A stretch of DNA of 64,000 nucleotides from Eledone cirrhosa. Its lineage: Eukaryota. The DNA lies in assembly GCA_964016885.1 (NCBI GenBank), contig OZ024740.1, forward strand, positions 256,866,001 to 256,930,000. The letters are read 5' to 3'. The translations under genes and the position numbers were made by a program. The notes under the pieces were generated by a model. The model did not search any database and was not told the DNA's origin. It saw only the letters and a program-made list of their open reading frames with translations. This document shows, in pieces, positions 4,739-60,649 of this stretch; position 1 is the stretch's first letter; the number at the start of each line of letters is the position of its first letter.

Positions 4739-6339
4739 TGTATGTATGTATGTATGTATGTATGTATGTCTTAAGAGCACCTTTGACATCCAAAATCACC
4801 TGGAGAGATGGCCCCTTAGCCTTTATCAAGGCAGAATTCTAGGAGAAGCACAACTCTGATATAACACCTGCAACCCTGATGGTATCCAATGATGTTGACT
4901 TGTTCTTCTTTTTGGTAAATATCATCTTGGTTTAGAGAGTGGAACTGGCTTTGTGCAGTGCCTTTGCTCACTATAAAAGCTTCACGGCACAGGCATTGCG
5001 TTATATCTGGAGATCTCTCTGCACTTGTCATCACTTGGTACCATGGGCCCAGCATTATGTGTCAATAATTGTCACAAGTGTAGTGTTTGTACCAGAGTTT
5101 TCGAGTCGCGGTCTGACTAAAAAGTCACACTCGTTCAGCGCATCGGTAGGGGTTCTCCTACATGGTTATAAAGTAGTGGCCGTACTCGAAAACGAGTTGG
5201 CAGCCACCATGTATGTATGTATGTCCTATACATTCAAAAACAATTTCTAAAACTGTCTGTGTATAGAAGTGAATAAACAATATATATATAAATATAGATG
5301 TATGTGTGTGCGTGCTAGAAAATCCCTGTTCATTAGTAAAAGGGACAAACACAAGATATACATACACACGATACACGCACACACATTCCTGTATATCATA
5401 TATGTATATATACCCACATATATATATATACATATATATGTGTGTGTGTGTGTGTATACACACACATATATCGCAGGCACATACACGCACACACATACAT
5501 ATAAGATTTCTGTTTACTTAGTCTGACCTCACCACCGAAACTCTGGCGCCCTCCTCATCTCATCAATATCTCACTATTTTATTAAGTGAAACAAAACAGT
5601 AACAGAACACCATTTCATATGACCAAGCCCAATCACACACACACACATCCCAGGGACCTACTCCCTTACCCACACTCTCCGCTTTCTTTTAAATCACTTT
5701 CTTGCTAACTCGTGCAGAATATTGTTATTCTTGTCGTTGTTTATGTTTCGTTAAACCAGCCAACCGTGACCACACCATTTTCCCCTGTATCCTCAATCCA
5801 TCTCCACCTTTCGCCGAATAAGAAGATGATGTTGGTGATGGCAACTAGAATGGATTGAACCTCGTTGATTTCGACGATGAGTTGTTCGATCATCAGAAAA
5901 GCCTGTTCATGAAATCAACGTTTGGCTAAGTATTCCTCAGATACTTGTATTGAATATGTGAAGTTTACCCCTCTGAATAACTGGTACAATCCATCTAAAA
6001 CTTTTTCGCCTACCTAATGTCACAGACAAGGCTTGGGCCAACCCGAATGTAAGGTAAATGATGCCAGGCTGTAGGTCAAACCCATGACCTATCCTTGACC
6101 ATACTTCGTCCAATAAGATGACGGTGAATAACTAAATCTGTCACCTTAGTTTCAAGGATTTATCAACACACTCTTTCTTTTTCTCTTTCTTTTTTATATT
6201 CCCCCTCTCATTCTCTCTCTTTTTTCTGTCGCTCTCCATCAACTACATCCCTTTCTTCCTCTTCACTGATTATTTTCTTTACTTCCATGCCTCTAGAGCT
6301 TATCCCACAACAGGCCAGGGATTTCTGGAAGTTTTCCAT

Positions 6340-8627
6340 AGGCCCCGATCTGAAAGTTCTCTTGAAGAGAGTGAACGTCGTCGATCTTTCCCTCCACTAG
6401 CCCTCTATAGAACGTCGAGGTGGATGTTCCACCGATCCTAGTGCCCAGCTGGTAGAGGGCAGTGAGCGCTTGGAGACATTCCAGCTTCCAAGCGCTATTC
6501 GTCGGTCTTTTCCTGATCCAAAACTGCAGCTCCGTCAAGGAGACGAGCTGGGGAAAAGCGCGTCTGGCAAACGGCGACCACACCTGTTCACCCGTCAAGG
6601 AAGCACCAGAGATGTCGCAGCCTCAGCTCATGTTTGCGCATCATCAGCCATGGCATGCCTAGTCCTCCACGCAACAGGTGTTGACAGCAGATGGATCGTC
6701 TGACCATGGGAGCACGTCCTTTCCATAAAGAGCGGAAGAGAAAGGTGCTCCATTTTAGTCAGAGTTGGGCGGGGACAAGGTACGATGGTCAGGCGGTAGC
6801 AGATGACGGACCGAACCAGACACCAAGCACTTTAACCGATCCTCCCGTCCAGCGTCCCACGACGCTGTCGGACGCCATGGACTTGCCTCTCCTTGTGTTG
6901 AGTTGCAAGCCCACGTACTTTTCCTGGTTTTTATTTACTCCTGTCACCATTTCGTATTCCTTGAGAGCGGTGCCGAGCATTTGGACGTGTTTGGTGCTCG
7001 ACATCACAACGGTGACGTCGTCGGCGTAAGCTGAACGGATCTCCCACATCCCAGTTCGCGTGGGATCTCCCTCATCGTCTCCAATTTGTGAAGTAACGGC
7101 TCGAGGGCCTGTACGTACAAGAAGCACGAGAGGGGCAAACCCTGGTGGACCGAGCGCATGATGCTGAAAGGTTGCGACAGGTGACCATTCACCCTAAACA
7201 ATCGAGCATATGTCGCTGTGCATCGCAGCGATCCAGCCCCTAAAGTCGGGCGCGAAGCCGGCCGCCTCGAGGACCGCAGCCAGGTACCGATGGTCGACCC
7301 TATCAAATGCTTTAGATTTATCCAAGTTCATCAGGGCCCCTCCCATGACAGGTTCAGTAGCCATCCTCTCTATGATGTATCGCATGAGCTGGAGGTTGTC
7401 GTGGATTGATCTGTCCGGAATGGCGCATGTCTGCGACTCACCCACCAGATCATGGACGACAAGCACCAATCTCTTTGCTAACACCTTGGCCAAAATCTTA
7501 AACTCTGCGTTTAGCAGAGTTATGGGCCTGAAGTTGTCTATAATGTCCCCCTTGTTCGGGTCTTTTCTCAGCAGCGCCACCGCTCCCTGGCTCACAAAAC
7601 TGGGAATGCTCCCGTTTTGCTGCCAGTTGCAGTAGATGTCTGCCAAGAAGTTGCCGAACAAATCTGGCTTATACGCATAAAGCTCGTAGGGCAGACCATC
7701 CAAACCTGGCGATTTACTCCTCGTGCAGTCAGATCGCTTCTCGTATTTCATTGGCTGTTATCGGCCTTTCGCAGCACTGCGCAGACAGCATTCCGTCGAA
7801 ATATGCACCGAAGTCCATACCCTGACCCGGCCCGCCGTTCCCGAACAATCAGAGCAAAGTGCTGTTGAAAAGCCGCACACATCTGCTCGGGTTCGAGCAA
7901 CATGCGCCCGTTTTGATCAGGCAAGGACCGAATTGTGGACTTGTTGCCACGTCGCGCCACCACTACCCGGGTCCATTGGACAACCTTCAATAGCCAGATC
8001 TGTTTTCTTACAGAATACCCTATCTAAATACGATCTGGATGACCCGATGCGGTTTGCCCATGCCCACATTGGCATATTCAGATAATCCAGTATATATATG
8101 TCAGGCAGTTCAAAACATCTGAGCAGCGTGTTGAGGCTTTTACACCCTCCTGCCCTGTCTACTAGCCCCACATAATCCCAGCGTCCATCTAAGATACCGT
8201 TCCAGTCGCCCATTAACACTAAAGAGCGGGACGTTCCCAGAAAGGTCTCTAGACGTCTGAAGAAATCTGGCCGTCCTACACCATTTGGGGCGTAGACGGC
8301 TACTAGCCTGAAAGCATTGCCTTCGCTGCCGGTCACGTCCAGCACCACCGACTTACCTTCTGGGTCCAGGAATATGTCCCGTATGGCGAGATTCAAGTCT
8401 CTCCGAACTAGCACTGCCACCTCTCTCCCCGAACCTGGACGGCTGGGAGATGCGTATACATCGTAGCCGCCGAAGATCAGTGCGAAGGCTTGTGCTTCGG
8501 AGATTCTGGTCTCGCTGATGGCCACCACATCTATATTTAGTGACATGAGGTCGTTGAGCAGGTAACCCTAATTCCAAGATGACCCCAGGCCACGTACATT
8601 TATACAGCCTATTCTAAGTACGGCCAT
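6340..8627 (-). pseudogene. Tx1 copy A ORF2 (APE + RT), frameshifted
   Basis: Motifs DVVAISET, MGDWN, SYLDRVF, KSPGLDG, NFRPITLLN, KAFDRV, QG.PLS and AYADD are spread over several frames. There is a deletion near 7985 between EN and RT. Confidence 0.9.
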
Positions 8628-8664
8628 GTTGGATGAGAAACGAGGCAAGTGAGAAAGGTTCACT

Positions 8665-10598
8665 TACCTTGATCGTGTGGTGAAGGGACAGTAGAACCGT
8701 CCCTTTGGCTGGTCATGGGTGTTTCCAAGAGGATGTCGGTGTATACCCTCTTGGTAACCGACCCTCTGAAGACTCCAACTGCGTTGGGGAATTGTTGTTA
8801 TAAAAGTTTGTACTGTTCTATTTTGATTTCAATGATGCTTATGTTTGTCGGGATAATTCTTGGTGTTGGTGGGGTGTAGTAGTTTTTTTCTGTGATGTCT
8901 GTGTGCTGCTTTATATGTTGTATGAGTTCTTTATTTGCCATGTTTATGGCTGTGTACTTTTGGGAGTAGGGGTGATTTTGTTGCTGTTTTCTTGTTGTTG
9001 CTGTTGGGTGTGTGTGTTTTGTTGTGTTTGCGATGTTGGTGTTTTTGGTGATGCTGGCGGTGGTGTGGTTGTTGTTGGTGGTGATGCTTGTGCTGGTGTT
9101 GCTGCAAGTATCCTTGCAGCCTTTACCCCTCTTTGTCTGCCTTCACTTTTGGAGAGTGAAGCTAAGGGGTTTTCCTCTTTTGTTTTTGTGGCAGATCGTT
9201 TGCCACTTCCATCCCGCCTCACACTCCATGTCAGACTCCGCAGCGTCTGGGAAGGGGCATGAGCTCCACTGCTGTTGGTGTTGGTAGTGGAGCCCGCTCC
9301 GGTGATTTTACCGCCGGCGTAGCTACTGCGATTGTTGGTGTTGCATCCACTGCTGCCGCTGCTTTAGTTGTCCGTGGCCCTGGTATGGGTGCCACTGACG
9401 TTGCCCTCCTATTCACTATGGAAGGGTCTTCAGCCTCTGTTGCCTGCCCAGCTCTTGGTAGCAACGGATCAGGCGTCGGAAGGAGGGGTGCCCTCTTCTT
9501 GGCTGTCTTCTGCGGGCAGAAGGCCCTGAGGTGACCCTTCTGTCTACAGAGATAGCACTTTGGGCGCCTTCCTTCCACACTTATAGGGAGTTGGTGTCCT
9601 TCTTCGAGGTCTATGATCTCTGGGATGGCCTCGATGCCCTCCTGGTCAGTCTGTATTAGCATTTGCATGCCTGTTCCTGACCAGGTCTCTCCTCTCATTC
9701 TCTGTATTTGCAGTATGGTGGTCTTCTCCTCGATTCCAACAAGTACAGACGCGGCCAGCCAAGGTATGGGCACGTCAGGTGGGACCTGGGTCACTTTGAC
9801 CCTCACAATTTTCTTCCCGCAGTAGGAGGGCACCAAGACTATCTCCTCACTCTTTAGGGTTTCCAAAGAGTGAGACTTTGCCTCTTAGGGGGTGCCGAAA
9901 AGTACGTCTACTGTGCGCCCAGACGCACTCCAAAGCCTTTTGGATTTGAGCCTCCGTGGCTCTCTCCATCCGATGTGACATCTTGCTTACGGTGCAGTAG
10001 GTCACCGTCCGTAGCTGCTGGCTCTTGAAAAAATCCGGTGGAGGTTTCAGGGAAACTCTATTGGCGTTTCTTGTCACCATGGCCCTTGCGACTGCCATCT
10101 CCTCCTCTGTGACTAACACTGTTTCGATATTTCGGGCGACACCTGCAAAAGAAGTGGTCCCTTTTTCAGAGGTACCACTATTGCTGCCGCTACTGGTCTT
10201 GCTAGTGGTGCTGAGATCGCTGTTACAGGTATCGGTGTCATTGTTGATGTTTTCGTTGGTACTGTTGTTGGTGTTGCTGTTGTTACTGTTATTGTGGCTG
10301 TTGTTATTATTGTTGTTTTTGTTGATACTGTTCCTACTATTATTGTTGTTGTGGCTGTTGTTATTGTCATTGTTATTGTCGTTCTCGACCTTACCGCTGT
10401 TATTTTGTTTTTGCTGTTGTTATTGATGGTGTTGTTTGTGTTAGAAATATTTGGTAATTTTAAATCTGTAACAATATCATTAAAAATGATATTCTGCCGC
10501 TTTTCCTTCGTAATATTTTCTTTTATATTTACCTTTGCTAGAACGCTGTCTTGTTGATATGCTGACAAAGTCTCCCTCTCTCTATGTTGTCTGACCAC
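8665..10598 (-). pseudogene. Tx1 copy A ORF1 (zinc-knuckle RNA-binding protein), frameshifted
   Basis: CYLCRQKGHLRAFC (CX2CX4HX4C) in ORF 9231-9866, with Thr/Gln-rich low-complexity flanks. Confidence 0.8.
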
Positions 10599-10859
10599 GC
10601 TCTCTCTCTCTCTTTCTTGTGTTATCCATATTGAAAGACATTTTTTTCTCCAAATAATATTATTACTTAATACGACATCCCATAAGGGTATTATTTACGA
10701 GTGAACCCATGTATTAGGTGGGTCACTTCTTCTAAACTTTTATCAAGTTAAAATTTGAATAAAAGGTTTAGAACGGTTGAAAACGAGGTAATACTGTTGA
10801 AAAAAAATTTGAGCCGATAAGAAGCATGGCTTCACTACAATAATAATAATGATAATAAT

Positions 10860-10975
10860 AATTGTTTCTACTTTTGGCACAAGGCCAGCAATTACTCAGT
10901 GCATTACTGGTACTTTATTTTATCGTCCCATAAGGATGAAAGGCAAAGTTAACCTTGGCGTGATTTGAACTCAGA
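10860..10975 (-). mobile_element. 5'-truncated tRNA-derived SINE (Nin/Deu-type core) between (AAT)n tracts
   Basis: Core TTTGCCTTTCATCC..GATAAAATAAAGTACCAG and tail GTAGAAACAATTATT on the minus strand; matches the fuller copies at 30552 and 52889. Confidence 0.85.
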
Positions 10976-10984
10976 ATAATAATG

Positions 10985-11050
<66 letters not shown>

Positions 11051-11302
11051 CTTTCTTTATTAACCACAAGGGTTTACACAAAGTAAACGTTAAGGACAGT
11101 ACAGGACAGTACTGGACGGTACAAAAGGGCATTTCTGCGTCTAAAAAAAACCCCAAAACAGAGGATGTAATAATAGAACAATGAAAAAATTCCCCAATAG
11201 GGGGGAGACTTCCGAAGGACATTCGTGGAGAAAGCCCATTAAAAAGCCACAGTGACCCTGACCACCAGGACAGGTGTCCTCTCCCAGTTTTCAACCTTTA
11301 AT

Positions 11303-14300
11303 TTACAGACACATACTCAGAGTAGGCCCAATCACTCGGGCCATTCTTGCCTCTCTCACCCATCTTTCAACAACATGCTGGGAAGAGAGCACTTCCCTTT
11401 CTACCCTCATTTTCCTTTTCAAATGAAATTTGAAAAAGTTAATCAGGGCATCACCGAAGAGGTAAGTGCTCGTCTTCAGCCCTTTCAAACGTGTCCACCA
11501 TACTATCTCTTTCGCCATGGCCACCAGACAGATAAAAACTGCCTGCCCTTCCCGGCTAAAGAAAGAGGGCGGGGCAATCCTCACGATGGACTCAGATGAT
11601 AGCCGGATCCGTCCTACACGCGACAGCAGGTGTTCGACATAAACCCACAAGTCAGCAATGCTCGGACACTGGACGAGTGCGTGCAAGACGGTTTCGTCGC
11701 CTTGCGCGCATCTCGGACATGCCCGGCTGACGGCACCTCCATGCCTGTAGAGTTTATCCCGAACTGGCAAAGCTCCTCGGTAGCACTGCCAGGACAGGCA
11801 TTTCTGGAAGTTGTCCATATTCCCCGGCCCGAAAGTTCTTCCGAAGAGATTGGCTAGTTGATTTTCGTCGACGCCTAGAATTTCGCCAAGTACGTCGTCG
11901 CTCTTCCCCTCCACTAATCCTCTATAGAACGCCAAGGTGGAGTTTCCACCGATCACATTGCCCGATTGGTCGAGGGCTGGGAGCGCCTGAAGACATTCCA
12001 GTCTCCAAGCGCTCCCTCTCGGTCTTCGCTTGACCCAGGACTGCAGCTCCGTCGAGGAGACGAGCTGGAGAAAGACGCGTCTAGCAAAGGGCGACCACAC
12101 CTGAGGACCGCCGAGGTGAGGTGGAGATGTCGTAGCCTGAGCGCGTGTCTTCGCATCATCAGCCACGGCATGCTCAGCCCTCCACGTAGCGGGTGTTGAC
12201 AACAGATGGACCGCCTGACCATCGGAGTGCGTCCTTTCCACAAAAAGCGAAAGAGCAAACGCTCCAGCGCAGTCAGGCAGGGCTTAGGACAAGGTACGAC
12301 GGTCAGGCGGTGGTAGATGACGGACGCGATGTACGCGTTAGCCACCTCCGCTCGACCTTTTAGGGATAGCTTCCTCTCCGCCCATTTCTGGGTGACAGAA
12401 GCCAACCTGCTCGGCACCTCGTGCCAGTTTTTGTCCGTCTGGAGGTCCGGACCAAACCAGACCCCTAGCAATTTAACCGACGACGCTGTTGGACGGCATG
12501 GACCTGATGTCCATGTGCCGAGCTTCAAGCCCACTGACTTTTCCTGGTTGATCATTGCTCCTGTCACCGCTTCGTATTCACTTAGTGTAGTGCCGATTGC
12601 CTCGATGTGTTTGGCGTTCGACACCACTACGGTGACATCATCCGCATACGCTGACACGGATCTTCCGCATCCTAGTTCGCGCGGGATTCCCCTTAACGTC
12701 TCCAGTTTGTGCAGTAATGGCTCGAGAGTCAATACGTAGAAGAGGGACGAGAGGGGACATCCTTGGCGGACGAGCGCATGATACGGTTCCGAAAGGTGAC
12801 CGTTCGCTCTCACCACAGAGCAGATGTCGCTGTGCATGGCAGAGATCCAGCCTCTGAAGTCGGGCCCAAGGCCAGCCGCCCTCAGGACTGCCGCTTGGTA
12901 ACGATGGTCGACCCTATCGAAAGCTTTCGAGTGATCTAAATTGATCAAGGACCCACGCGTGCCAGGTTCCTTAGCTACCCTCTCCACGATTTATCACATG
13001 AGGTGGAGGTTGTCGTGGATGGATCTGTCGGGAATGGCGCATGTCTGCGCCTCTCCCACCAGACCATCAACGACAAGCGCCAACCTCTTTGCTAGCACCT
13101 TGACCAAAATCTTGAACTCTGTGTTTAGCAGAGTTATGGGCCTGAAATTATCTATGTTATCCCCCTTGCTTGGATCCTTTCTCAGCAGCGCCACAGCTCC
13201 TCGGCTCACAGAGCTGGGAATTCTCCCGTTCTGTTGCCAGTTGCAGTAGACGTCCGCCAAGTGGCTTCCGAACAAGTCTGGCATCTGTACGTAAATTTCA
13301 TAGGGCAGACCATCCAAACCAAGCGATTTACCCCTTGTGCAGACAGTCATTGCCTCCCGTACTTCAACGGCTGTTATCGGCTTTTCGCAACACTCCGCCT
13401 CAGTGGCCGAGAGCCGCGGCAGTCCGTCGAGGTAGACACTAAAGTCCATCCCTCGATCCGTCCCGCCGCTGCCCCCGAACAGCTGAGCGAAGTGTCGCTG
13501 AAAAGCTTCACACATTTGCCCGGGATTGTGTAGCATGCGCCCGTCGTGGTCCACCAAAGACCGGATCGTGGCTTTGTTGCCACGACGCGCCTCTGCCACT
13601 CGGGCCCATTGAACGGCTTTCGTCCCCTCGTGTCTGAGAGCACGCACCCTAGCTCTGACACCGCAACCTTCGTGCTTTGCATTGAAGAATTGGTTAAAGG
13701 CCAATTTCGCCGCAAGTACGTCGGTCGCGATACCTTTGCTAAGCGCCTCTATAATTTTCTAACTAGTTCTCCCTCGGCTCTATTTTTCTCTATTGCTAAA
13801 GCCTTACTAAACTTAATGGATTCTATTCTAATCGCTCTTTTCAGAGCAAACCACCTCTTGTTGTTGACGATGGCCCCCGTCAACGCCCGCTTAACTAGTT
13901 CGCTAATCCGATCTATGTAGGCCTTGCGCGCTGTTAAGGACGCGTTTAGCTCCCAGTAGCCGGGTCCTCGTCTATGAAGCCTCTCTAAGTCAAGCAGACA
14001 GATCACGAATTTGTGGTCCGTGTAGCTGACTATCTTGAATTGTGGACAGCCTATGCTAGACCTATCTATTTCCCTACAAAATACTCTATCTAGATATGAT
14101 CTGGATGACCCTATGCGATTTTTCCAAGTCCACATTGGCACATTCGGGAAATCCAATCGGTACCTGTGAGACAGTTCAAAACGCCTGAGCAGGTTGGTGA
14201 GACTCTTGCACCCTCCACCCCTATCCGCTAATCCCACACAGTCCCAGCGTGCATCTAAGAGCCCGTTCCAGTCATCCACTAACACTAAAGGGCGGGACGT

Positions 14301-14693
14301 TCCAAGAAAGGTCTCCAGACGCCGGTAGAAATCAGGCCGCCATGCTCCTGTTTGGGCATAGACAACCACTAGTCTGAAAGCTTGCCCGTCTCCGCTGGTC
14401 ACGTCCAGCACCACCAACTTACCTTCTGCGTCCAGGAAGATGGCCCGTATGGCGAGATCCAAACCTCTCCGAAAAAGCACAGCAACTCCTCCCCCCGATC
14501 CAGGACGGCTGGGAGATGCGTACACATCGTAGCCGCCAAAGATCGGTGCGAAGGCCCGTGCTTCGGAGATTCTGGTCTCGCTGATGGCCACTACATCTAT
14601 GTTTAGTGACCTGAGGTCGTTGAGCAGGTAACCCTGCTTCCATGACGACCCCAAGCCACGCGCATTTCTGCTGCCTATTCTGAGTGAGGTCAT
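11303..14693 (-). pseudogene. Tx1 copy B ORF2 (APE-RT-C-terminal zinc finger)
   Basis: ORF pieces 13749-14726 (APE), 12994-13704, 11953-12987 (RQGCPLS, AYADD) and 11303-12241 (CPRC..ETVLHALVQC). Confidence 0.92.
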
Positions 14694-14726
14694 GTTGAAA
14701 TGGAGTGGAGAAGATGGGAAAGACAC

Positions 14727-16730
14727 TTACCTTACTTCTCGTAGAGGAAGGACGGTTTCTCCATCCTTTTCACTGCTTGTGACCTCCTCAGGAAGGATGT
14801 CCTTATAAATCCTTCTGGAGAGTGCTTGTCGGAAGTCTCCGATGTCTTTGGGGAATTTTTGTTTTAGTGTCATGTACGTTTTCTGTGTGATGGGAGTGAT
14901 TTGTATGTGTGTAGGTGTTGTGAACGTTTGGGTTGTTGTGTAGTCTTTTTCTGTGATGCTGGTGTTGTGTTGGATGTAATGTAATAATTGGTTGTTGTTC
15001 AAATGTAATTGTTTCTACATTTGGCACAAGACCAGCAAATACCCAGTACATTACTGGTACTTTATTTTATCGACCCCGTAAGGATGAAAGGCAAAGTTAA
15101 CCTTGTTGTTCAAATTTAATGCTGTGTAGTGTGTATCGTTTTGGTTGTTTTGTTTTGTTTGCGTTTGTTGTACGTTTGTTTCTGTTTCGCTTTTTCGTGA
15201 CTTTTGTGGTGTTGGTAATGGTGGTGTTGGGGTTAATGATAGTGATGGTGTTGGTGTTTGTGGTGATGGGGTTGGTGATGCTGGTGGTGATGGTGGCATA
15301 TCTGTCCTAACTTTTTTGTTTGATAGTTTATTTGTTTCCCTCTGTATTTTGTTTTTGGAGGGTGAATGAAGGGGATTTTTTTCTTTTTTGGCTTCTTTTT
15401 CTTTTTTTCGTTTTTGCTGATACCGTTTCCCACTCCTCGTCGTTACAATTTGTTTCCAGTTGCGATAGGTCGGGGAGTGGAAATCCTCCACAGGCGTTGG
15501 TTTTGGTTGTGGCGTTGTGAATGGTGTACGCGCTGGTGCTAGTTCTGGCCCGTTTGGGGGGAGGGGTTGCTACTGTTACTGGGTTTGTTGCTGTTCCAGT
15601 TGCTTCTGTTGTTGTTGCTACAGTTGTTGCTGCCATTTCTGCTGCTGGTGGTGTTGATGGTGGAGTCACTGGGTTGGGTAAGAGAGGTGGCCTCAACCTT
15701 TTAGCCTGAGGGCAGAAAGCCCTTAGGTGGGTTCCTTCACCACAAACGACGATTACGGTGAGGCGGCTGCCGTCAGTGAGGTCTATTACCTCTGGGATCT
15801 CCTTAATGCTTTTCTGGTCAGCTTGGATCAGGAGCTCCATCCCAGATCCGGACCTGTTCTCCTGCTTTTCTTTTGCTATTTCGATTATCTTGGTGTTGGC
15901 CTCGATGATGGCGAGGACGGCTGCCATTAGGCAGGGAATTTCGATGGCCGGTGGAACGTGGGTCTCCTTGATCTTCACGAGTCACTGGCCACAATAGTTT
16001 GGGACGAATGTGAAGTCGTCACTTCTTAATGGGGCCTCCTGTGCCTCCTGTAGTGTTCCAAAGAACACGTCCACGGTACCATATTTCTGCCCACGTCTGA
16101 TGTGGGTTTTTTTTTGCCCACACATGTCCCAAAGCTTTTTGGATTTGGGACTCCGATGCCCGTACCACTCGGCGCGATTTTATGTTAATCGTACGATAAG
16201 ACACGATCCATAGGCGCCGGTGCTCCATTTTATTAGGCGAGGGGGGCAGGGGGGGCTGACCCTGTACCCATCTTTCTTTACCATTCTCTTGGCTACATCT
16301 AATTCCTCCTGAGTTACCTGGAGTGCTTCGCACTTTTTTGCTGCTTTGGCAAAAACACGGTGGTTTTGTTATTCTCATTGTTGTTGTTGCTGTTGTTGTT
16401 ATCGTTATTTTTGTTATTGTTATTTTTAGTTTGAGTTGTGGTGGTGGTGGCGTCAGTGGTGTTCGGTGTGGAAGAGTCCATTCTGAGTGAATCCATTTCG
16501 ATGTCACGAGATAATTTATTTTTTTCTTTTGTTTCTGTTGTCGCTGTGGTGATGGTGGCTACAACACCTGCAGTCATTGGTAATGGCGGGAAATGAATGT
16601 CTGCATGAGACAAATTTAAATTATTGCTACTGCTTATAATTTTAGTGTTGGCAAACCTAGTAATATTTACAATGTTGGTTTCGGTGTGAGGTGTTAGTTT
16701 GTGAGGAAGGTGGGGCTGTGAGTTGCCCAT
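14727..16730 (-). pseudogene. Tx1 copy B ORF1, interrupted by a SINE and frameshifts
   Basis: Homologous to copy A ORF1 (IPEVIDL, HLRAFCPQ, QIQKAL). Confidence 0.8.
15010..15102 (-). mobile_element. Truncated Nin-type SINE inserted in Tx1 ORF1 with 18-bp TSD
   Basis: TSD ttgttgttcaaatgtaat (14992-15009) and ttgttgttcaaatttaat (15103-15120). Confidence 0.9.
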
Positions 16731-16965
16731 GATTTTTCAAAGAAATCTTTTTGTTTGATAATTATAAAAGTTTACATTTTGGGCTCAAGGCCCGAATCTT
16801 TTGAGTGTCCTTTTCCGAAAGCAAATTTTGTGACCTTATAAACAGTTAATAACAACATTTTTCCATAAATGGCAATTTTAAACAAACGAAAACAACAAAC
16901 CTTTGCGGAGCTCACGATGATACGATTTCCTACGTAGGTCGCCAATAATAATAATAATAATAATA

Positions 16966-17075
16966 ATTGTTTCTACTTTTGGCACAAGGCCAGCAATTAC
17001 CCAGTGCATTACTGGTACTTTATTTCATCGACCCCATGAGGATGAAAGGCAAAGTTAACCTTGGCGGGATTTGAA
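16966..17075 (-). mobile_element. 5'-truncated Nin-type SINE between (AAT)n tracts
   Basis: Same sequence and context as 10860-10975. Confidence 0.85.
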
Positions 17076-17092
17076 TAATAATAATAATAATA

Positions 17093-17305
17093 ATGCTTTA
17101 TTTATTAACCACAAGGGTTTACATAAAGTAGACATTAAGTACAGTACAGGAAAATACAGGACGGTACAAATGGGCATTTCTGCGTGTAAAAAAAAAAACA
17201 GAGGATGTAACAAAAAAGAACAATGAAAAATTCCCCAATAGCGGGGAGACTTCCATAGGCCATCGTGCAGAAAGCCCATTAAAAAAAGCCACGGTTTCTT
17301 TAGTG
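17093..17305 (-). mobile_element. Tx1 (B subfamily) 3'UTR fragment with (ATT)n tail
   Basis: Aligns with 11049-11255 (ttattaaccacaagggtttaca...aaagcccattaaaaa.gccac). Confidence 0.85.
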
Positions 17306-17319
17306 GCCACAAGGGGTAA

Positions 17320-19455
17320 CATGAAGAAAAACATTACAGACGACACAGAACGGTACGGGACGATACAAAGTGTGTTTTGGCCGTGTAAAAACGGTTATAA
17401 CAAGAATATAGAAATATCAAAAAAAATTCAAACAACAAAAATTTCCCAATAGGGGGGAAACTTCTAAGTGTCACTCGTGGCGAAAACCACACAAAAGACC
17501 ACCACCAACCTGACCATTCTCAGTTTTCCACTCTTCAGTTTACAGGCGCATACTCTGAGCGGGCCCGTTCACTCGGACCAGACTCGCCACTTTCACCCAC
17601 CTTTCAACAAACTTACAGAACACAGCACTTGCCTCTTCACCCTGATTTTCCGCTTCAAGTGAAACTTGAAAAAGTTAAATAGGGATTGGCCGGAGAGTAC
17701 AGTGTCCGTCTTCAACACTTTCAACCTTGTCCACCACACATCCTCTTTCACCATGGCCACCAGGCAGATGAAAACTGCCCTTCCGCCTCTTTAAAGTAGG
17801 ATGGCAGAGCTATCTGCACAATGGATTCAGTCGATAACCGGATCCGTCCTACACGCGACAGCAACTGTTCGACAAGTCAGCAATCCTCGGGTACTGAACG
17901 AGTGCAAGACGGTTTCGTCGCCCTGGGCGCATCTCGGACAGGCTCGGCTGACAGCACCTCCATGCCTGTAGAGCTTATCCTGAACCGGCAACGCTCCTCG
18001 ATAGCACTCCCAGGCGCGGAATTTCTGGTTGTTGTCCATAGTCCATGGGCTGAAATATCACTCGAAGAGAGCGAACAGCTGATCGTCTTCGACGCCCATG
18101 GTCTCCCTTAGAACGTCATTGCCTTTCACCTCCACTAGCCCAATATAGAACGCCGAGGTGGATATTCCACTGCTACTAGTATTCAGCTGGTAGAGGGCGG
18201 TGAGCGCTTGGAGACATTCCAGCTTCCAAGCGCTATCCCTTGGTCTTTTCCTGATCCAGTACTGCAGCTCCATCAAGGAGACGACCTGAGTAAAAGCGCG
18301 TCTGGCAAACGGGGATCACACCTGTTCACCGTCAAGGAAGCACCAGAAATGTCGCAGGCCCAGCGCATGTTTACGCATCATCAGCCATGGCATGCCTAGT
18401 CCACCACGCAACAGGTGTTGACAGCAGTAGGATCGTCTGACGATGGGAGCACGTCCTTTCCATAAAGAGCGAAAGAGAAGGCGCTCCATTTTGGTGAGTG
18501 TTGGGCGGGGGCAAGTTACGACGGTCAGGCGGTAGCAGATGACGGACGCGATGTACGCATTCGCCACCTCCCCCCGACATTTCAGAGACAGCCTCCTCTC
18601 GGCACATTTCTGTGTGAGAGAGGCCACCCTGCTCATCTCCTCGCTCCAATTTTTCTCCATCTGGTGGTCAGGACCGAACCAGCGCCCCACGACGGTGTCG
18701 GACGGAATGGACTTGCCTCTCCAGGTGCCGAGTTGCAAGCCCACCGACTTTTCCTGGCTTATCTTTGCTTGTCACCGCTTCGTATTCCTTGAGAGGCGTG
18801 CCAAGCATCTGGACGAGTTTGGTGCTCGACGCCACCACGGCGACGTCGTCGGCGCGAGCCGACAAGGATTTCCCTCATCGCAGTTTGCGAGGGTCCACAC
18901 TCATCGTCTCCAATTTGTGCAGATACGGTCCAATGCATACTAAAGGGATGAGAGGGGACAAGCCTGGCGGACCGAGCGCATGATGGTGAACGGCTGCGAC
19001 AGGTGACCATTCACCCTCACAATCGAGCAGATGTCACTGTGCATCGCAGCGATCCAGCTCCTAAAAGCGGACCCGAAGCCGACCGCCTCGAGTAACGCCG
19101 CCAGGTACCGATGGTCGACCCTATGCTTTAGATTGATCCAAGTTCATCAAGGCCCCACTCGGCCAGGTTCCTTAACCATCATCTCTATGGTGTATCGTAT
19201 GAGATGGAGGTTGTTGTGGATGGATCTGTCCGGAATAGCACATATCCGCGCCTCTCCCACCAGATCACGGACGACGCCAATCTCCTTGCTAACACCTTGG
19301 CCAAAATCTTGAACTCTACGTTTGGCAGAGTCATGGGCCTGAAGTTCTCTATAACGTCCCCCTTGTTCGAGTCTTTTCTCAGCTGCGCCACTTCCCCCGG
19401 CTCACAAAACTGGGAATGCTCCAGTTGCAGTAGACCTCTGCCAAGAGGTCGCTGA
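17320..19455 (-). mobile_element. Tx1 copy C (A-like subfamily), 5'-truncated, RT to 3'UTR
   Basis: ENFRPMTL, WLMMRKHAL and CPRCAQGDETVLH motifs; has its own 3'UTR at 17320-17540. Confidence 0.88.
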
Positions 19456-19519
19456 GAAGTGACCCACCCAATACAGGTGTTTCACACGTAAATAATATAG
19501 CACCCCTTTACGGGTGTCA

Positions 19520-19605
19520 TGTTCACTCGGACCAGATTCATCGACTTTCACCCACCATTCAACAAACTTAGTACAAGACAGCACTTGCCTCTCCACCCTG
19601 ATTTT
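19520..19605 (-). mobile_element. Short Tx1 ORF2 C-terminal fragment
   Basis: KIRVERQVLS..KFVEWWVKV matches 17567-17650. Confidence 0.7.
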
Positions 19606-19622
19606 AATATTAATAATAATAA

Positions 19623-22600
19623 TGTTTTCTTTATTAACCACGAGAGTTCACTTAAAAAATATAACATTAAGGACAGCACAGGACGGTGCAGGACGGTACA
19701 AATGGGCATTTCTACGTGTAAAGAAAAAACAAACAAAGAAAATGACAAAAAGAAACAAAGGAAAATTCCCCAATAGAGGGGAGACTTCCGAGGGGCACGC
19801 CTGGAGAGAGCCCATTAAAAAAGCCACGCTGATCCTGTCCTCCAGGGCAAGTGCCCTCTCCCAGTTTTACACCTTCAATTTACAGGCGTATACTCAGAGC
19901 AGGCACATTCACTCTCTCACCTATCTTTCAACAAAATGCTGGAAAGAGATCACTTCCTTCTCCACCCTGATTTTGTTTCGCAAATGAAATTTGAAAAGGT
20001 TAATCAGGGCATTACCGAAGAGGTAAGTGCTCGTCTTCAGCCCTTTCAAACGCGTCCGCCACACGATCTCTTTCGCCACGACCACCAGGCAGATAAACAC
20101 TGCCTGCTCTGCCTGGCTAAAGGACGGCGGGGCAATCCTCGCGAAGGCCTCAGCTGATAGCTGGATCCGTCCTACACGTGACAGCAGGTGTTCGACATAA
20201 ACCCACGATGCTCGGATTCTGGACGACTGCGTGCAGGACGTTTCGTCCCTCTGCGTGCATCTTGGACAGGCCCGGTTGACGGCACTTCCATGCCTGTAGA
20301 GTTTATCCCGAACTGGCAACGTTCCCGGTAGCATTGCCAAGCCAGAGATCTCTGAAAGTTGTCCATGGGCCCCGGCAAGAAAGATCTCCCGAAGAGATTG
20401 GCTAGTTTATTTTAGTCAACGCCCAGAGTTTCCCCAAGGACGTCGTCGCTCTTTCCCTAGACTAACCCTCTATAGAACGCGAAGGTGGAGTTTCCCTCGA
20501 TCACATTGCCCGATTGGTCGAGGGCTGTAAGCGCCTGAAAACATTCCCGTCTCCAAGCGCCTCCTCTCAGTCTTCGCTTGACCCAGGACTGGAGATACCT
20601 CAAGGAGTCGAGCTGGGAAAATACGAGTCTAGCAAAGGGTGACCCCACCGGATCACCGTCGAGGCCGAGGAGGAGATGCCGTAGCATGAGCGCATGTTTG
20701 CGCATCATCAGCCACGGCACACCCAGCCCTCCACGTAGCGGGTGTTGATAGAAAATGGACCTTCTGACCATCGGAGCACGTCCCTTCCACAAAAAGCAAA
20801 AGAGCAAACGCTCCAACGCAGTCAGGCGAGGCTTAGGACAAGGCCCGACGATCAGGCGGTAGTAGATGGCGGACGCGATGTACGCGTTCGCCACCTCCAC
20901 TCGACCTTTCAGGGATAGCTTCCCCTCGTCCATTTCTGGATAAGAGAGGCCACCCTGCTCGTCACCTCGTCCCAGTTTTTGTCCGTCTGGAGGTCCGGAC
21001 CGGAACAGACCCCTAGCAATTTAACCTGTCCGTCCGTCCAGCGCCCGACGTCGCTGTTGAACTGCATGGTCCTGCCTCTCCAGGTACCGAGCTGCAGGCT
21101 CACCGACTTTTCTTGTTTAATCATTGCTCCTGGCCCCGCCTCGTATTCTTTTAGTGTAGTGCTGATCGCCTCGATGTGTTTGGCATTCGACACCACAACG
21201 GTGACGTTGTCGGCATATGCTGACATGGTCCTCCCGTTTCCTAGTTCGCGCGGGACACTCCTCAACGTCCCCAGTTTGTGCAGTAATTAGCTCAAGAGCC
21301 AATACGTACAACAGGGATGAGAGGGGACATTCTTGGTAGACCGAGCGAATGATGTTGAATGGTTCCGAAAGGTGACCGTTCACTCTCACCACAGAGCAGA
21401 CGTCGTTGTGTATGGCAGCGCGAACCAGCCTCTGAAAACGGCCCAAAGCCGGCCGCCGTCAGGACCGCCGCCAGATAACGATGGTCCACCTATTGAAAAC
21501 TTTCGACTGATCTAAATTGATCAAGGACCCACCCGTGCCAGGTTCGTTAGCTACTCTCTCCAAGATGTATCGCATGAGGTGGAGGTTGTCGTGGATGGAT
21601 CTGTCTGGAATAGCACATGTCTCCGCCTCTCCTACCAGGCCGCCGATGACAAGCGCCAACCTCTTGGTTAACACCTTGGCCAAAATCTTGAACTCTGCGT
21701 TTAGCAGAGTTATGGGCCTGAAATTATCTGTATTGTCCTTCTTATTCGGGTCCTTTCTCAGCAGCGCTACTTCTCCTCGGCTCACAAAGCTGTGTATCTC
21801 GGAAGTCTCCAATGTCATTGGGGAATTTTCCTTTTAGAGTTGTGTATGTTTTTTGTGAGATGCGTATTGTTTGTATGCGTGTGGGTGGTGTGAATTTGGG
21901 GGATGTTGTTAGTTTTTCTTTGTGTTGCTGATGTTTTATTAGAAGTAGTGCAGTAGCTGTTTATTGTTCGTGTTTAAAACGGAGTAGTGCCTTTCAGTTT
22001 AGTAGTTTTGTTGTGTTCGTGTTTGTTATGGTTGCACGATTTAGTTTGTTTCTGTTTGGCTTGTTGTTGGTGGTGTTGGTGTTTGTGTAGTTGGGGGATG
22101 GTGATGCTGGTGTGGCTGGTGGTGTTGACGTAGATGTCTTGATTTTTAATTTTTTTCTTTATTTGTTTCGCCCTCTTTGAGGGTTTAGGAAGAGAGTTAT
22201 TTTTTTCTCATGTTTTTTTAACGGTTTTCCACTCCCCCTCCTCGTCCCAATCCGTCTCTAGTTGTGTGAGGTCGGGGAGTGGGATATCCTCCACAGGCGT
22301 TGGTGTGGCTTGTGGCGTAGTGAATCACGGTGGCGCTAGTGGTACTTCTGACGTGGCGGGTGGTGGTGGTGGTGCTCTTGCTACAGTTGCTGCTGTTATT
22401 GTTATTTGAGCCAGTGGCGTATGCAATGACGCCCTAACACCACCGACACCACCACAGCAACAACTGAAACAAAAAACAACAACATGAACAACAACAACAA
22501 CAACAACAGCAGCGCAGGACCAAACGTCTATTTTGCCAGTGTTGTGGTAGAGCCAAATTTCGTGCTTCGCTGTTGCTGATATTTAAATTTTGATCACAGG

Positions 22601-38433: not shown

Positions 38434-38899
38434 ACATATATATACACATATATATACATACACATACATACACATACACATACATATACATATATACACA
38501 TACACACACACATACACACATATACATACATACATAGATATACACACATACACATATATACGTATATATATATATATATATGTGTATATATACGTATATA
38601 TATATATATATATATATACGTATATATACACATAAACACATATACAAATACACAAAGGGGAAACATTTAAGGAAACAATCAAGATATGAAAAACCATCAA
38701 ATAATATAAATTTAAATTAAGTAACATAAAATACAAGTAAATAAAATTAAAGTATAAGTTATAAGTTTGAAAGGGAACAAAACAAAGGTAGGGTTGGGAT
38801 GGGAGGGGGGCACGGGGGAGTGTTTTTAATGTTTAATGTCGATTCCGTTGTCTTATGGGATCATCGTTCAGGGGGAAGAACTGGTCTATATGACATGTA

Positions 38900-39310
38900 A
38901 GTTGCATAGTTTTTGTGCATGCAATTCGGGCAGTGTTCTGAGAGTCTATTGATGTATAAAGGGAGGTTTCTAAATCGAGAGTTACATCTAAGAAGTTGGC
39001 TTTAGTTAAACTCGAATTTATAGTTATTCTGAGGCTTAGGTTATTGAAGAAAGCGTTAAGTTTTTTCCGAAACCCATCGGTAGTCGTGGGGTTAATGTTA
39101 TGCAGGGCAAAGAGGCCACCATCTCGGTATAATCCGCCTGTAAGGCATGTGAAGAGGGTTTTCTTCCGGTTAAGGATAAACAGGCCCACCAGATCACTAA
39201 TCTCAGCCGAGTCACTAGTACCCATCCTGACATCGAAGAGAGTCTCCGATTTTTTGTTCATCGAGTAGGACCCGTTATGGTACAAAAAGGTCTAACGTGC
39301 ATGGAGGATC
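38900..39310 (-). pseudogene. Penelope-like reverse transcriptase fragment (Naiad-like motifs)
   Basis: FDVRMGTSDSAEISDLVGLFIL, GLYRDGG (decayed YRDD) and NFLDVTLDL motifs. Confidence 0.75.
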
Positions 39311-39320
39311 ACATCCTGCT

Positions 39321-40141
39321 CGGCTGTTACTTAAATATAAGTATGTATCCGTACATACATATATGTATACAGACGTACAGTAGTATGTATATATATATAC
39401 ACATACATGCACGCATATATATATGTACGTATGGATTCACCGAACATTTATTATAATGCTCGGTGTGTTTGTAAAGAAACATCCCGAATTAAGCTGTACA
39501 GTGTCTAGCAACCATCGTTGCTTATTTGTTCAACACTGACACAGGAACGCTGTACTAGTTTCAAGCTTATTAGCTATCGTCAGCAACGTATACCTTCCTG
39601 CCACATGATTGAACGTCTGAAAGTGTATACTTTCCTTATGCATATTAACGGCTGAGCAGCCTAATTTGCATATCGAGTGCATACATATATGTATGTACGG
39701 ATACATACTTATATTTAAGTAACAGCCGTACTAAGAGTGAGAAATGAAATTTCGTTTCATTTTTTCCGTGTATCGCTTTCGGTGCGCCCGGCCGATTAAC
39801 TCATTCGATATGCAAATTAGGCTGCTCAGCCGTTAATATACATAAGGAAAGTATATACTTTCAGACGTTCAATCATCTGGCAGGAAGGTATACGTTGGTG
39901 ACGATAGCTAATCAGCTTGAAACTAGTACAGCGTTCCTTTGTCAGTGTTGAACAAATCAGAAACGATGGTTGCTAGACACTGTACGGTTTAATTCGGGAT
40001 GTTTGTTTACAAACACACCGAACATTATAATAAATGTTCGGTGAATCCATACGTACATATACATATGTGTGCATGTATGTATATATATATATATACATAC
40101 TACTGAAAGTATGTATACATATATGTATGTACGGATACATA

Positions 40142-40148
<7 letters not shown>
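39321..40148. mobile_element. Fold-back of a ~434-nt hammerhead-containing unit
   Basis: Arms 39335-39679 and 39802-40148. On the plus strand, gtacggatacatacttatat repeats at 39695 and 40129. Confidence 0.85.
39547..39589 (-). ncRNA. Minimal type I hammerhead ribozyme
   Basis: ACGUUG-CUGACGA-uAGCUaauaAGCUu-GAA-ACUAGU-A^CAGCGU. The mirror copy at 39892-39934 has a C3>G change. Confidence 0.75.
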
Positions 40149-40186
<38 letters not shown>

Positions 40187-40379
40187 ATAATATTAATGAA
40201 AGTAAAATTTTTACTCATTTACTAGGTATATCTTAGCTCAATGCAATGATAGGATCATGCAGAACCGCTATTTAGTTAGAATTTGCTTACAAGATACACA
40301 TTTGTATTTTAATTAAACTCTGATGACAATCATAATTTATGCTCACCAATGGCAAATTTTATATGTATACACACACACT

Positions 40380-40539
<160 letters not shown>

Positions 40540-40559
40540 CATATATATAGATATATATA

Positions 40560-42420
40560 CATTCACAGCGCCATTTATATTAGACGCAGTCAAACTTATT
40601 CTGGAAAACAACATTTTCTTCTTCAAAGGAAAGAATTACATCCACATTAGAAGCACAGCGTTGGGAACGAAGTTTGCTCCCGTTTACGCGAACTCTGTAA
40701 TGGGATACTTAGAACAACAACTCTACCAAGAAATAAAGGAAAAATATAGCACTGACTTTAGAAAGAACATTGAAAAGTCTTGGAAGAGATACCTTGACGA
40801 CTGTTTCATCATCTGGACAGAATATCTAGATATTCTGGATGAGTTCAATATCCTCCTGAATAACCTACATCCATCTCTCCAATTCACATAAGAGATGAGT
40901 AGTACCGAATTACCATTCCTAGATATAATGATAATCAAAACCGACACCACCATTACCACGGATATATATTATAAACACGCAGACACCCATCAATATCTGA
41001 ATTTTAATCGTGCCATCTACCTCATACAAAACGCAACATCCCATACTGCCTAGCCCGAAGAATTTTTACTATTGTAGAAGATACGAATACCAGGCACAAA
41101 CGCCTAACAGAACTGAGAGAATTTTTGCTTAAACAAAAATACCATCTCTACTTATAGAAAATGGCATATAGCGGGCTAAAAAAATACCTATACAACAACT
41201 TAGGACAACCCAAGGAAGGAGAAACCAAGAACTGGTCATACCATTTATAATGACACACAACCCATGTAACCAGACTATCTTCAACACTGCCAAAGGAAAC
41301 CTACCGATCATTGCTCAAAGTAATGAATTAAAAGGCTTAATCACAGACCGATCTTTGACTCTTAGTAAAAGACAGCCGAAAAATTTGAAGCAATTACTAA
41401 CAAAGGCAAAGTTTAACCTTAACAACAAAGACCAATCATTCAATGTATCCAAATGCAGTGATAGTCGATGTGGCACATGTCAATCCATACACACGGTCAA
41501 TATATGAACACAAAAACTGGAAAAATATTCCCAAATGCAAATGTGAACTGCAAAAGCAAAATCTAATTTACTGCATTAAATGCCCGAATTGTGAAGAACT
41601 ATATGTCGGTCAAACTGGAAATGCACTATCGGAACGTGCACGGGTGCACCGACAGCAAATTAGAGACCCAAATGTCCGTCAGATACCCCTGAGTAACCAT
41701 CTAGCAACATGTGGTCAGAAAATATTCATAATATTTCCATTCTACAAATTACACAGCCCAAGTGAAATCAAGAGAAAAATTAAAGAAAAGAATTTTATTG
41801 ATGAATTCTAACCCAAGCTAAATGAACAATAATAATGCCTAGAGGTATTACTCCTACTATGACTACGCCTACGAACATGTTGACTACCACCATAACAACA
41901 ACAACAGTAATAATAATAATAAAAGTGATGTTGATGGTGATTATTACTGAAGACTTTTTATAAAAACCCTAGAAAATACTATTTTTATCATTTCTAAAAA
42001 TAGCAAAACAATTGATGCTTTGGATAGGGTCAAATAGAAGTCGTTAGACATGCTCAACCAACCGAGACGCCTAAACCAATCAGCTTTAGTAATCCAGTGA
42101 AACTACACACGGATTGGTCGAAATACAGTTTGCAAACTTAGCATTCTGTAGCCACTTTTCACTGTATATAAGGCACAAACTTTACCCATCTCATTAAAGT
42201 TGAAAATTGCAAACTTGACAGTCACCACATAATATTAACCTGAAGATTGCGAAAGCATGAAAGTACTTGTTCAATTAACACTTAACATTTAATATTCTAA
42301 CATACTATTTCATTCTAATACCATTATACATTTTAAAGGATTGTAAATAAAACGAGTAAATCAGACAAAGTTGGAATTCCTTTTATCAATACAATCCTCT
42401 ATACACAATCATACACACCC
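40560..42420 (+). mobile_element. Penelope-like element (Neptune-type RT + GIY-YIG), 5'-truncated and inactivated
   Basis: [39 protein letters not shown] and NLIYCIKC..LYVGQTG..ERARVHR motifs; flanked by (TA)n-rich tracts. Confidence 0.9.
42237..42271 (+). ncRNA. Hammerhead ribozyme in the PLE 3' pseudo-LTR
   Basis: AAC-CUGAAGA-uUGCgaaaGCAu-GAA-AGUACU-U^GUU. Confidence 0.7.
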
Positions 42421-44455: not shown

Positions 44456-45419
44456 GGGGATTTCTTTCTTCGTTTCTGTGCCTTTCCTTTCTTCTATCCT
44501 ACGCCATTTTGTTTGTGTGTGGGTTGCGTGCTCAGTTTGCGCATGCGCCACATCCGGGTGTCTGTGTGTGTTTGTGTTCATTTTTCTATTTTTCTATTTA
44601 TATTTTTCTATTTGTTTGTTTATTTATTTATTTATTGTTGGTTGGTTGTTTGTTCTATGTGTGTGTGTGTTTTCATTTTGTCTTGTGTGTGTTTTCATTT
44701 TGTGTGTGTTTTCAATTGTAAGTTGTTTGTTTTATGTGTGTGTGTGTTTTCATTTTGTCCTTAATTGTAAGTTGTGATGTTGCTGTTCCACTCATATTTT
44801 CTATTTAATTTTGGTTTTAATTCTTTTATGCTTACTGCCTCTGTAATTTGCCTAAACATTGCGTCTTTCTTGTGTGTGGATTCTATTTTTATTTCTATGC
44901 TCTCTAATTTACCCCTGTGTTCTATCTTAGCATGTTGGTAGAGCACAGATGATTCTTTATTATCTTGGAGGTCTCGCCAGTGTTCATTTATTCGTTCCCC
45001 TATACTACGAGCTGTCTCACCTATGTACACTATATTTTTGTTTCTACATTGTCCTTCAGTACATCTTATGCTATATACTACATTTCTAGTTTTACAGTTA
45101 ATATGGGGGCTTATTTTACAGGTTATACATTTCTTATCTATACATGAGGGTCTTTGGAACGGGTATGTCTTGCTAATAAGTGTTTTTACGGAGGTACCAG
45201 GTCTTTCTACTATCTTAATATTGAGATTATGTTTCTTTAGGGCCCTTCTAAATTTGTAGGCTAGTTCGCCTCTAGGGGTTGTATTGATGAACATTACACT
45301 CTGGTATTTATTGCTATCATACCATGAGTTTATTCTATTGGCCTTGTTCTTAGTTCTTTCTATTCTATTCCAAAATTTGCTCCTATACAAAGGGCAGGTC
45401 CCATTTATGTCATTATTTA

Positions 45420-45421
<2 letters not shown>
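44411..45421 (-). mobile_element. Penelope-like element 3' portion (GIY-YIG endonuclease, 3'UTR, terminal HHR)
   Basis: [38 protein letters not shown], stop at 44761; (TA)n on both sides. Confidence 0.9.
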
Positions 45422-45498
<77 letters not shown>

Positions 45499-45565
45499 TA
45501 TATGTATATACATATATATATACATATATACATATACATATATATATATAAACATATATATATAT

Positions 45566-45687
<122 letters not shown>

Positions 45688-45917
45688 GTATATAATATAT
45701 ATATGTATATATATATATATATATATAAATAAACGAGAATCGTATTTCGGCTTAGGAATTAACGAAAACAACTTCCGAGATGTGTGGCAAGCGCTCAATA
45801 ATTCAGATGAATCACAGCTACAACATATGTTAAAGGCCAAACACACTGAGACGATAGTAAAACAAACATCCGCACAGCCAAAGAAACGACCAAGTAATTC
45901 GGGTCAAACAATAAAAA

Positions 45918-60610: not shown

Positions 60611-60649
60611 TATATAACCAAAGATTAATATGTTTCGTTGATTAGTCAA

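Follow-up and report, generated by a model that had tools for sequence, protein, structure and literature searches.

Stacked insertions at ATT repeats in the octopod Eledone cirrhosa: an L1/Tx1-type LINE, its neighbours, and a SINE that may share its enzyme

Retrotransposons that lack long terminal repeats (non-LTR retrotransposons) integrate by target-primed reverse transcription. Among the long interspersed elements (LINEs), Kibi inserts into (TC)n and Koshi into (TTC)n in teleosts, and crocodilian Tx1 families are found in (TTCC)n or (TTTC)n (PMC4494074, PMC3812793; here and below, published work is cited from excerpts of the sources, except where a main text is named). Dong, DongAg and DongBg insert in TAA repeats, and the same source places Dong among the elements with an apurinic/apyrimidinic endonuclease (APE) (PMC3812793). 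As for short interspersed elements (SINEs), the crocodilian Tx1-Mar LINEs have been proposed to move SINEU, the argument being shared targets and 5' small nuclear RNA heads (PMC4494074), and stringent-type pairs have been described between ZmSINE2/3 and LINE1-1_ZM and between SINEX-3_CR and L1-1_CR (PMC3472496, PMC3747384). In octopus, L1-Tx1, Dong-R4 and tRNA SINEs are reported to be abundant and recently active (PMC13282606, PMC8967140); the annotations name no targets for L1-Tx1, Dong-R4 or the SINEs (PMC13282606, PMC8967140, PMC4758252, PMC4824008), nor partners (PMC13282606, PMC8967140), and the word "target" is absent from the main text of PMC13282606. Here we analyse 64,000 nucleotides of Eledone cirrhosa (assembly GCA_964016885.1, contig OZ024740.1, positions 256,866,001 to 256,930,000, forward strand), called the window below, and in it an L1/Tx1-type LINE, element A, which an earlier note had described as bracketed by a repeated SINE-LINE module.

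On the forward strand the module reads (AAT)n, the 3' part of a SINE, (AAT)n and a LINE 3' untranslated region (UTR), and it is indeed found on both sides of A, at 10839-11255 and 16944-17296. The earlier note was also right about the truncation of both SINE pieces at the B box (the cuts lie 6-7 nt apart, 10975 versus ~17075) and about a variant present in both, an A at a CpG. Its "full-length Tx1" is complete in extent, but open reading frame (ORF) 2 is split over four frames and ORF1 is broken. The second "3'UTR" is LINE 3' sequence, but it consists of a 202-bp 5'-truncated copy (B) joined to an older Tx1-like 3' end (D), and although the same order occurs twice, the two UTRs belong to different subfamilies. 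Read in element sense, the series is the 3' half of D, B, (ATT)6, SINE S2, (ATT)8, A, (ATT)25, SINE S1, (ATT)8 and element E. A third SINE, S3, unmentioned by the earlier note, lies within ORF1 of A with a 16-bp duplication (15010-15104). We propose that the repeated module is very probably a pile-up of separate targeted insertions, made by LINEs that seek ATT and end in ATT and by a SINE that inserts at C/ATTA (the slash marks the insertion point) and likely borrows the LINE enzyme.

The target is seen at the 5' junctions of other copies. Searches with the 5' ends of A and E gave 40 scored matches each, from 2,071 and 620 candidates, and 30 loci were retrieved for each. Two or more ATT units in a row, sometimes decayed to GTT or interrupted, precede all 29 non-self family-A 5' ends and, by the same criterion, 29 of 29 non-self family-E ends. 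With ten more matches the figure for family A becomes 39 of 39 (the first 29 being the same copies); 30 of these 39 reach the family 3' end, with a typical length of ~5.8 kb. The background was taken from 200 kb at round coordinates on ten contigs, where an exact 9-nt ATT run precedes 226 of 399,640 random positions (0.057%) and a 6-nt run 1,225 of 399,760 (0.31%). The comparison with random sites that the earlier note had suggested is thus one of 39/39 against 0.06-0.3%, and in work on Tx1 elements more than 20% of flanks of one type counts as target preference (PMC4494074). Truncated copies do not carry the element's own 5' end, and therefore the ATT at their junctions comes from the target. 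Such copies start after ATT in 9 of 12 cases in a first set (17 visible 5' boundaries minus four internal deletions and one undisplayed boundary) and in 8 of 11 in a second (15 boundaries minus four internal deletions), together 17 of 23. Three LINE copies inserted in interrupted target runs (L012, L029, L030) show duplications of 11-15 bp that include letters other than ATT. ATT runs are strongly supported as the target of A's family and of the neighbouring family E. The earlier note had suggested SINE and LINE tails of (ATT)n as the target; the repeat stands, but any ATT run will do, not SINE tails specifically.

Two points weigh against this reading of the junctions. The copies are the best-scoring 30-40 of 366-2,886 candidates rather than a random sample, and 6 of the 23 truncated copies, B among them, do not follow ATT. 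One might also suppose that there is no targeting at all, and that copies merely survive, or get assembled, preferentially in ATT-rich repeat piles; passive gathering in repeat-rich regions has been stated for Drosophila Waldo (PMC3812793). Base-exact 5' junctions in 39 of 39 copies on many contigs, target duplications and a single orientation relative to ATT make such passive survival highly improbable. The refuting picture drawn in the earlier note, random flanks and a local tandem duplication, differs from what is found, since the flanks are nonrandom and the modules are not copies of each other. Two observations extend the junction survey. The 3' flanks of L012, L019, L022, L123, L213 and L234 contain further recurrent 5' ends after ATT tails, probably those of more Tx1-like families with the same target. 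At 17296/17297 and in L010, truncated copies abut another Tx1-like 3' end directly, with no ATT remaining, which suggests a cut at the base of the tail and loss of target bases.

Beyond the run the neighbours vary. Upstream, as judged by eye, a SINE tail stands at 6/29 family-A and 9/29 family-E 5' ends, another Tx1-like tail at 4/29 and 9/29, and opposite-strand R4/Dong-like sequence at ~11/29 family-A ends; (CTT)n was met in 3-4 copies only, and there upstream of the ATT run, the junction repeat itself being ATT in all. Downstream of 29 tails we found a SINE in five cases, a 5' end presumed to be that of another Tx1-like element in five, Tx1-like interior in two, an opposite-strand Dong-like 3' end in six and other sequence in 11. 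Support from a PDB search is weak (an R2 match, E=0.43), and the R4/Dong label follows motifs seen by eye. Dong belongs to the R4 clade, with a C-terminal restriction-like endonuclease. Opposite-strand R4/Dong-like families, at least two of them, occupy the same ATT/TAA runs (L150:6628-8000, L023:1800-2150 and other flanks).

A SINE directly behind the LINE tail was counted in 5/29, 10/30 and 6/29 copies in three sets, or 20/87 after removal of one duplicate, some 40-fold above SINE density by a hand estimate. Such adjacency is what would be expected of a chimera of LINE 3'UTR and SINE that is transcribed and travels as a single unit (3' transduction), as the earlier note had considered. However, 67 of the 87 copies have no SINE, the SINEs behind the tails differ in subtype and in cut point, from complete elements down to the final 20 nt alone, and copy C in the window has none behind it. 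Moreover, A's UTR and B carry the diagnostics of two different subfamilies (alignment of 26 chosen sequences). On this variety of junctions we rejected the chimera, which we regard as extremely unlikely, and on the subfamily diagnostics we likewise rejected duplication of the whole module.

A narrower possibility is that only the SINE was copied locally, through a ~130-bp target duplication made on insertion of A, unequal exchange between ATT runs or gene conversion, the LINE parts being independent. The variant singled out in the earlier note cannot serve as proof of a common SINE origin, being a CpG change found in 7 of the first 100 matches listed (~7%). A second CpG change common to S1 and S2 is present in 16 of the first 100 listed, and both together in 679 of 69,267 exact matches (1.0%), about the product of the single frequencies; locus counts of the variants gave lower, biased frequencies. 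The double-CpG class, the subtype markers and cuts only 6-7 nt apart nevertheless argue for some link between S1 and S2, and their shared membership of a 1% class together with the B-box cut is a coincidence that independent insertion leaves unexplained. Their roughly six differences in 109 nt, about twice the divergence of A from its subfamily, would also be in keeping with a duplication made when A went in. On the other side, S2 is identical at 108 of 109 nt to an unlinked copy, L241, with which it shares two further changes that are not in S1 (alignments of 20 and 26 chosen sequences); since L241 has them, these changes come from the source element and not from decay after duplication. A long duplication was seen by eye in 0 of 19 complete copies with comparable flanks, and other bracketed copies have different SINEs on either side: L144 shows the same SINE-LINE-SINE bracket with two different subtypes, and L135 different SINE pieces. 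Local copying of one SINE is therefore improbable, though less so than the chimera, and separate insertion remains the reading we prefer.

The SINE has a target of its own. A full copy is 188 bp long, with A- and B-box-like motifs recognised by eye, and gave no Rfam match up to E=5. Clear duplications of 9-20 bp starting at ATTA are present in 17/29 copies, with C preceding in 16 of the 17 (the query included the tail, which favours ATTAT). In 200 kb of random DNA we counted 18 short-type 3' ends, equivalent to ~270,000 copies when extrapolated to the 3.0-Gb assembly; ATTAT follows 15 of the 18, and three or more ATT units only two. The SINE is therefore a C/ATTA(T) inserter and not a microsatellite specialist. 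The end of the LINE, a final C followed by the ATT tail, is itself a C/ATTAT site, which would explain why SINEs so often lie behind LINE tails. Four SINEs of different subtypes are stacked at one site in L241:1430-2120, unrelated to the ORF1 site described next, with the same target duplication after each, so that re-use of a site is a general habit.

The site of S3, ~45 codons before the ORF1 stop, is a hotspot. A SINE lies at the same base in 4 of 29 other family-A copies in which the site is readable (10/39 without anchor). Genome-wide, the exact junction of SINE end and site occurs at least 229 times, in some cases with the insertion doubled at the one site, against 825 exact occurrences of the ORF1 site unfilled or with a long duplication; hence roughly one fifth are filled. 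Most of the insertions are independent: among the first 30 matches listed (L180-L209), inserts measure 64-219 bp and duplications 7-20 bp, two SINE subtypes are represented, and the 5' junctions take more than 20 distinct forms. Two control C/ATTA sites elsewhere in the element, which 19 and 20 of 39 copies retain (24 retain the hotspot), gave 0 and 0 SINE junctions genome-wide; being G/C-rich downstream, they are compatible with the hotspot simply being a good site. Generic CATTAA-plus-A/T sites are filled at no more than 2%, an estimate based on ATTA plus A, C or G standing behind 0/14 exact SINE ends in random DNA and on 11 such sites in the window, and the enrichment at the hotspot is, loosely and by hand, about tenfold. 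With hundreds of insertions at one base, the hotspot is a natural data set for the variation of 5' truncation, microhomology and duplication length at a fixed site, and SINE markers scored as present or absent can be homoplasious here.

What links SINE and LINE is their 3' end. The last ~30 nt align across nine LINE ends from several families and six SINE ends, and an older long SINE matches a D-type LINE end at ~24 of 31 aligned terminal positions by eye. The consensus folds into a 4-bp stem with a CUUGU loop, with 90% of cells paired; three of the four pairs show two-sided changes, 14 in total. On three of five measures, 0 of 500 shuffles scored as high, and slid controls were 12-53% paired. 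SINE and LINE duplications both start at ATT, on the same strand and with similar lengths. Since these last ~30 nt, with their covarying hairpin, are shared, the SINE likely borrows the LINE enzyme, and judging from these ends it would, on balance, use the ORF2 of this LINE.

Several results pull the other way. The stem has only four pairs and was predicted from the same alignment, whose related sequences amount to ~six lineages; the other two measures did not exceed shuffles (270/500 and 75/500), and folds of single sequences were no better than shuffles (z -0.74 to 0.64). A search for the LINE 3' end at the ORF1 hotspot, with a pattern covering some of the families, gave 0 matches, so LINE and SINE differ in their use of targets. 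The LINE requires longer ATT runs than the SINE. These facts would suit a pile-up in which a different LINE (RTE, CR1, L2 or a further ATT-tailed family) mobilises the SINE, the likeness of the tails being an old borrowing or chance: the SINE uses short C/ATTA sites while full-length LINEs always follow ATT runs, no LINE end is found at the hotspot, and the genome has further repeats with ATT tails (L043, L169). Against such an arrangement stand the same strand sense of the tail and the same distance from hairpin to tail in LINE and SINE, a loop conserved and a stem compensated across LINE families and SINEs, the terminal match of the old long SINE and the similar duplications. We therefore consider another mover rather unlikely, although it is the most serious alternative, and continue with a shared ORF2. 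If the enzyme is shared, the length of the RNA tail must account for the difference in targets.

A model can be proposed by reference to target-primed reverse transcription. The APE endonuclease would nick the AAT strand, whose freed 3' end would pair with the AUU tail of the RNA, and a second cut would follow 7-20 nt downstream. Each insertion would leave a new ATT run, the next target, and arrays would grow head-to-tail in one orientation. The SINE would insert at C/ATTAT at the start of a LINE tail, and its own ATT tail would then serve the LINE. At this locus, D-(ATT)n-E probably came first, after which B, the two SINEs and A would have entered the same run. More weakly, the length of the RNA tail may shift the target. 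In its fullest form the model is tentative, and we hold it only as one possibility: a single L1/Tx1-type ORF2 would recognise the 4-bp CUUGU hairpin and move both its own RNA and a SINE that is among the most abundant of octopods, long-tailed LINE RNA going to ATT runs and short-tailed SINE RNA to C/ATTA, including the ORF1 nucleotide, so that the tail would co-determine the target and the passenger would repeatedly hit its carrier.

Element A itself was classified from its proteins. Its ORF2 contains PF03372, PF00078 and PF13966 in that order (APE endonuclease, reverse transcriptase (RT) and C-terminal zinc motif; Pfam). A sister copy, L128, has a 946-aa open stretch of ORF2 whose best match among solved LINE proteins in the PDB, where few LINE clades are represented, is human L1 ORF2p (E=5e-52, residues 17-867), R2 proteins scoring 1e-19 or weaker. 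By domain order and closeness to L1 ORF2p, element A is classed as a non-LTR retrotransposon of the L1 group; the APE domain at the start of ORF2 speaks against membership of Dong/R4. An ORF1 with a CCHC zinc knuckle is a feature of the Tx1 clade. The ORF1 frame of copy L157 has a CX2CX4HX4C knuckle, zf-CCHC is weak and was seen in family E ORF1 only (Pfam, E=0.024), and three family-A ORF1 frames gave no Pfam match. Membership of the Tx1 clade proper is likely; the preference for one type of flank, with 39/39 5' ends after ATT, also agrees with the clade. Argonauta hians (72% over 79% of the searched region, and 61%) and Acanthosepion pharaonis (47%) supply the nearest named relatives of ORF2; no named Tx1 element came back from two homolog searches, from a look-up of clusters or from an atlas search. 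A large set of ~1,150-aa ORF2 proteins (P0004-P0121), at 45-52% identity, is nearer than any named non-cephalopod protein returned, and a metagenome scan with one of them (P0006, non-cephalopod relatives at 48-52% identity) found no locus.

Six L1/Tx1-like copies lie between 74 and ~22,430 of the window, every one of them on the minus strand; features from 6300 to 22430 are collected in Table 1. The sixth copy (74-2950) is an older Tx1-like element with 68% identity to A in part of ORF2; a (TA)n run, and not ATT, seems to precede its 5' end, making it a candidate sister family with another target. Short inverted Tx1-like 5' pieces beside C (22433-22511) and D (19455-19497) resemble 5' inversions or twin priming. 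Elsewhere in the window, Penelope-like RT and GIY-YIG-like frames were recognised by eye at 38833-40891 and 44761-45903, with a 292-nt inverted repeat (95%) at 39388-40093, and a mariner-type transposase remnant lies at 59808-60641 (Pfam HTH_32 and HTH_48, below cut-off).

Table 1. Features of the element A region, in window coordinates.
Feature	Coordinates	Strand	Remarks
Element E, older L1/Tx1-like LINE	6300..10838	-	5' end at 10838; CCHC knuckle in ORF1; ORF2 broken, fading near 6300
(ATT)8 run	10839..10862	-	Landing site of E; tail or target duplication belonging to SINE S1
SINE S1	10863..10975	-	5'-truncated at B box; 3' ~113 bp of 188-bp tRNA-type SINE
(ATT)25 tail of element A	10976..11049	-	
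Element A, broken L1/Tx1-type LINE	11050..16943	-	Full-length in extent, 5.9 kb; family ~5.8 kb
4-bp stem, 5-nt CUUGU loop (predicted)	11062..11074	-	~12 nt before tail of A; position and loop common to SINE 3' end
ORF2 of A (APE endonuclease, RT, zf-RVT)	11306..14693	-	Split over four frames
ORF1 of A	14803..16730 (approximate limits)	-	Broken; CX2CX4HX4C knuckle in intact-frame copies
SINE S3 in ORF1 hotspot	15010..15104	-	16-bp target duplication at 15105-15120 and 14994-15009
(ATT)8 run	16944..16967	-	Tail of SINE S2 and landing site of A
SINE S2	16968..17075	-	5'-truncated at B box; 108/109 nt identical to unlinked copy L241
(ATT)6 tail of copy B	17076..17094	-	
Copy B	17095..17296	-	202-bp 5'-truncated 3' end of family A, second subfamily; abuts D 3' end without ATT
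Element D, older Tx1-like 3' half	17297..19448	-	74% to A
Element C, Tx1-like copy	19605..22430 (5' limit approximate)	-	83% to A; short ATT tail, no SINE behind

LINEs that seek repeats are already known, and in the literature searched, outside Repbase, subscription papers and supplements, we found neither an ATT-targeting Tx1 element nor, in octopus, a pairing of SINE and Tx1, nor a hotspot of SINE insertion within the ORF1 of a LINE. The present analysis names ATT runs as the target of an abundant octopod LINE lineage and proposes a likely carrier for a SINE that forms a large part of octopus genomes. The long same-strand stacks and the growth of ATT microsatellites are explained by a LINE whose tail is its own target and is common to a SINE and a Dong-like family.

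Compared with the systems described at the outset, element A resembles Kibi, Koshi and the crocodilian Tx1 families in being an APE-endonuclease, two-ORF L1/Tx1-type LINE in a microsatellite, and by analogy its family would work as Kibi and Koshi do. Here, however, the host is an octopod, the junction repeat is ATT in all copies and not (TC)n or (TTC)n, and several sister families share the target and stack head-to-tail. With Dong it has the microsatellite in common, and Dong-like elements occur here in the same runs on the opposite strand (6/29 tails), but A differs from Dong/R4 in its N-terminal APE endonuclease and L1-like RT. As with Tx1-Mar and SINEU, a Tx1-type LINE is the proposed mover of a SINE, and hot positions are fixed inside another transposon; unlike SINEU, the SINE of Eledone cirrhosa has a tRNA-type head, shares the LINE 3' end, and has its hot position within the LINE's own ORF1. 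In that shared 3' end with its hairpin, held in common with an L1-clade LINE, it resembles ZmSINE2/3 and SINEX-3_CR.

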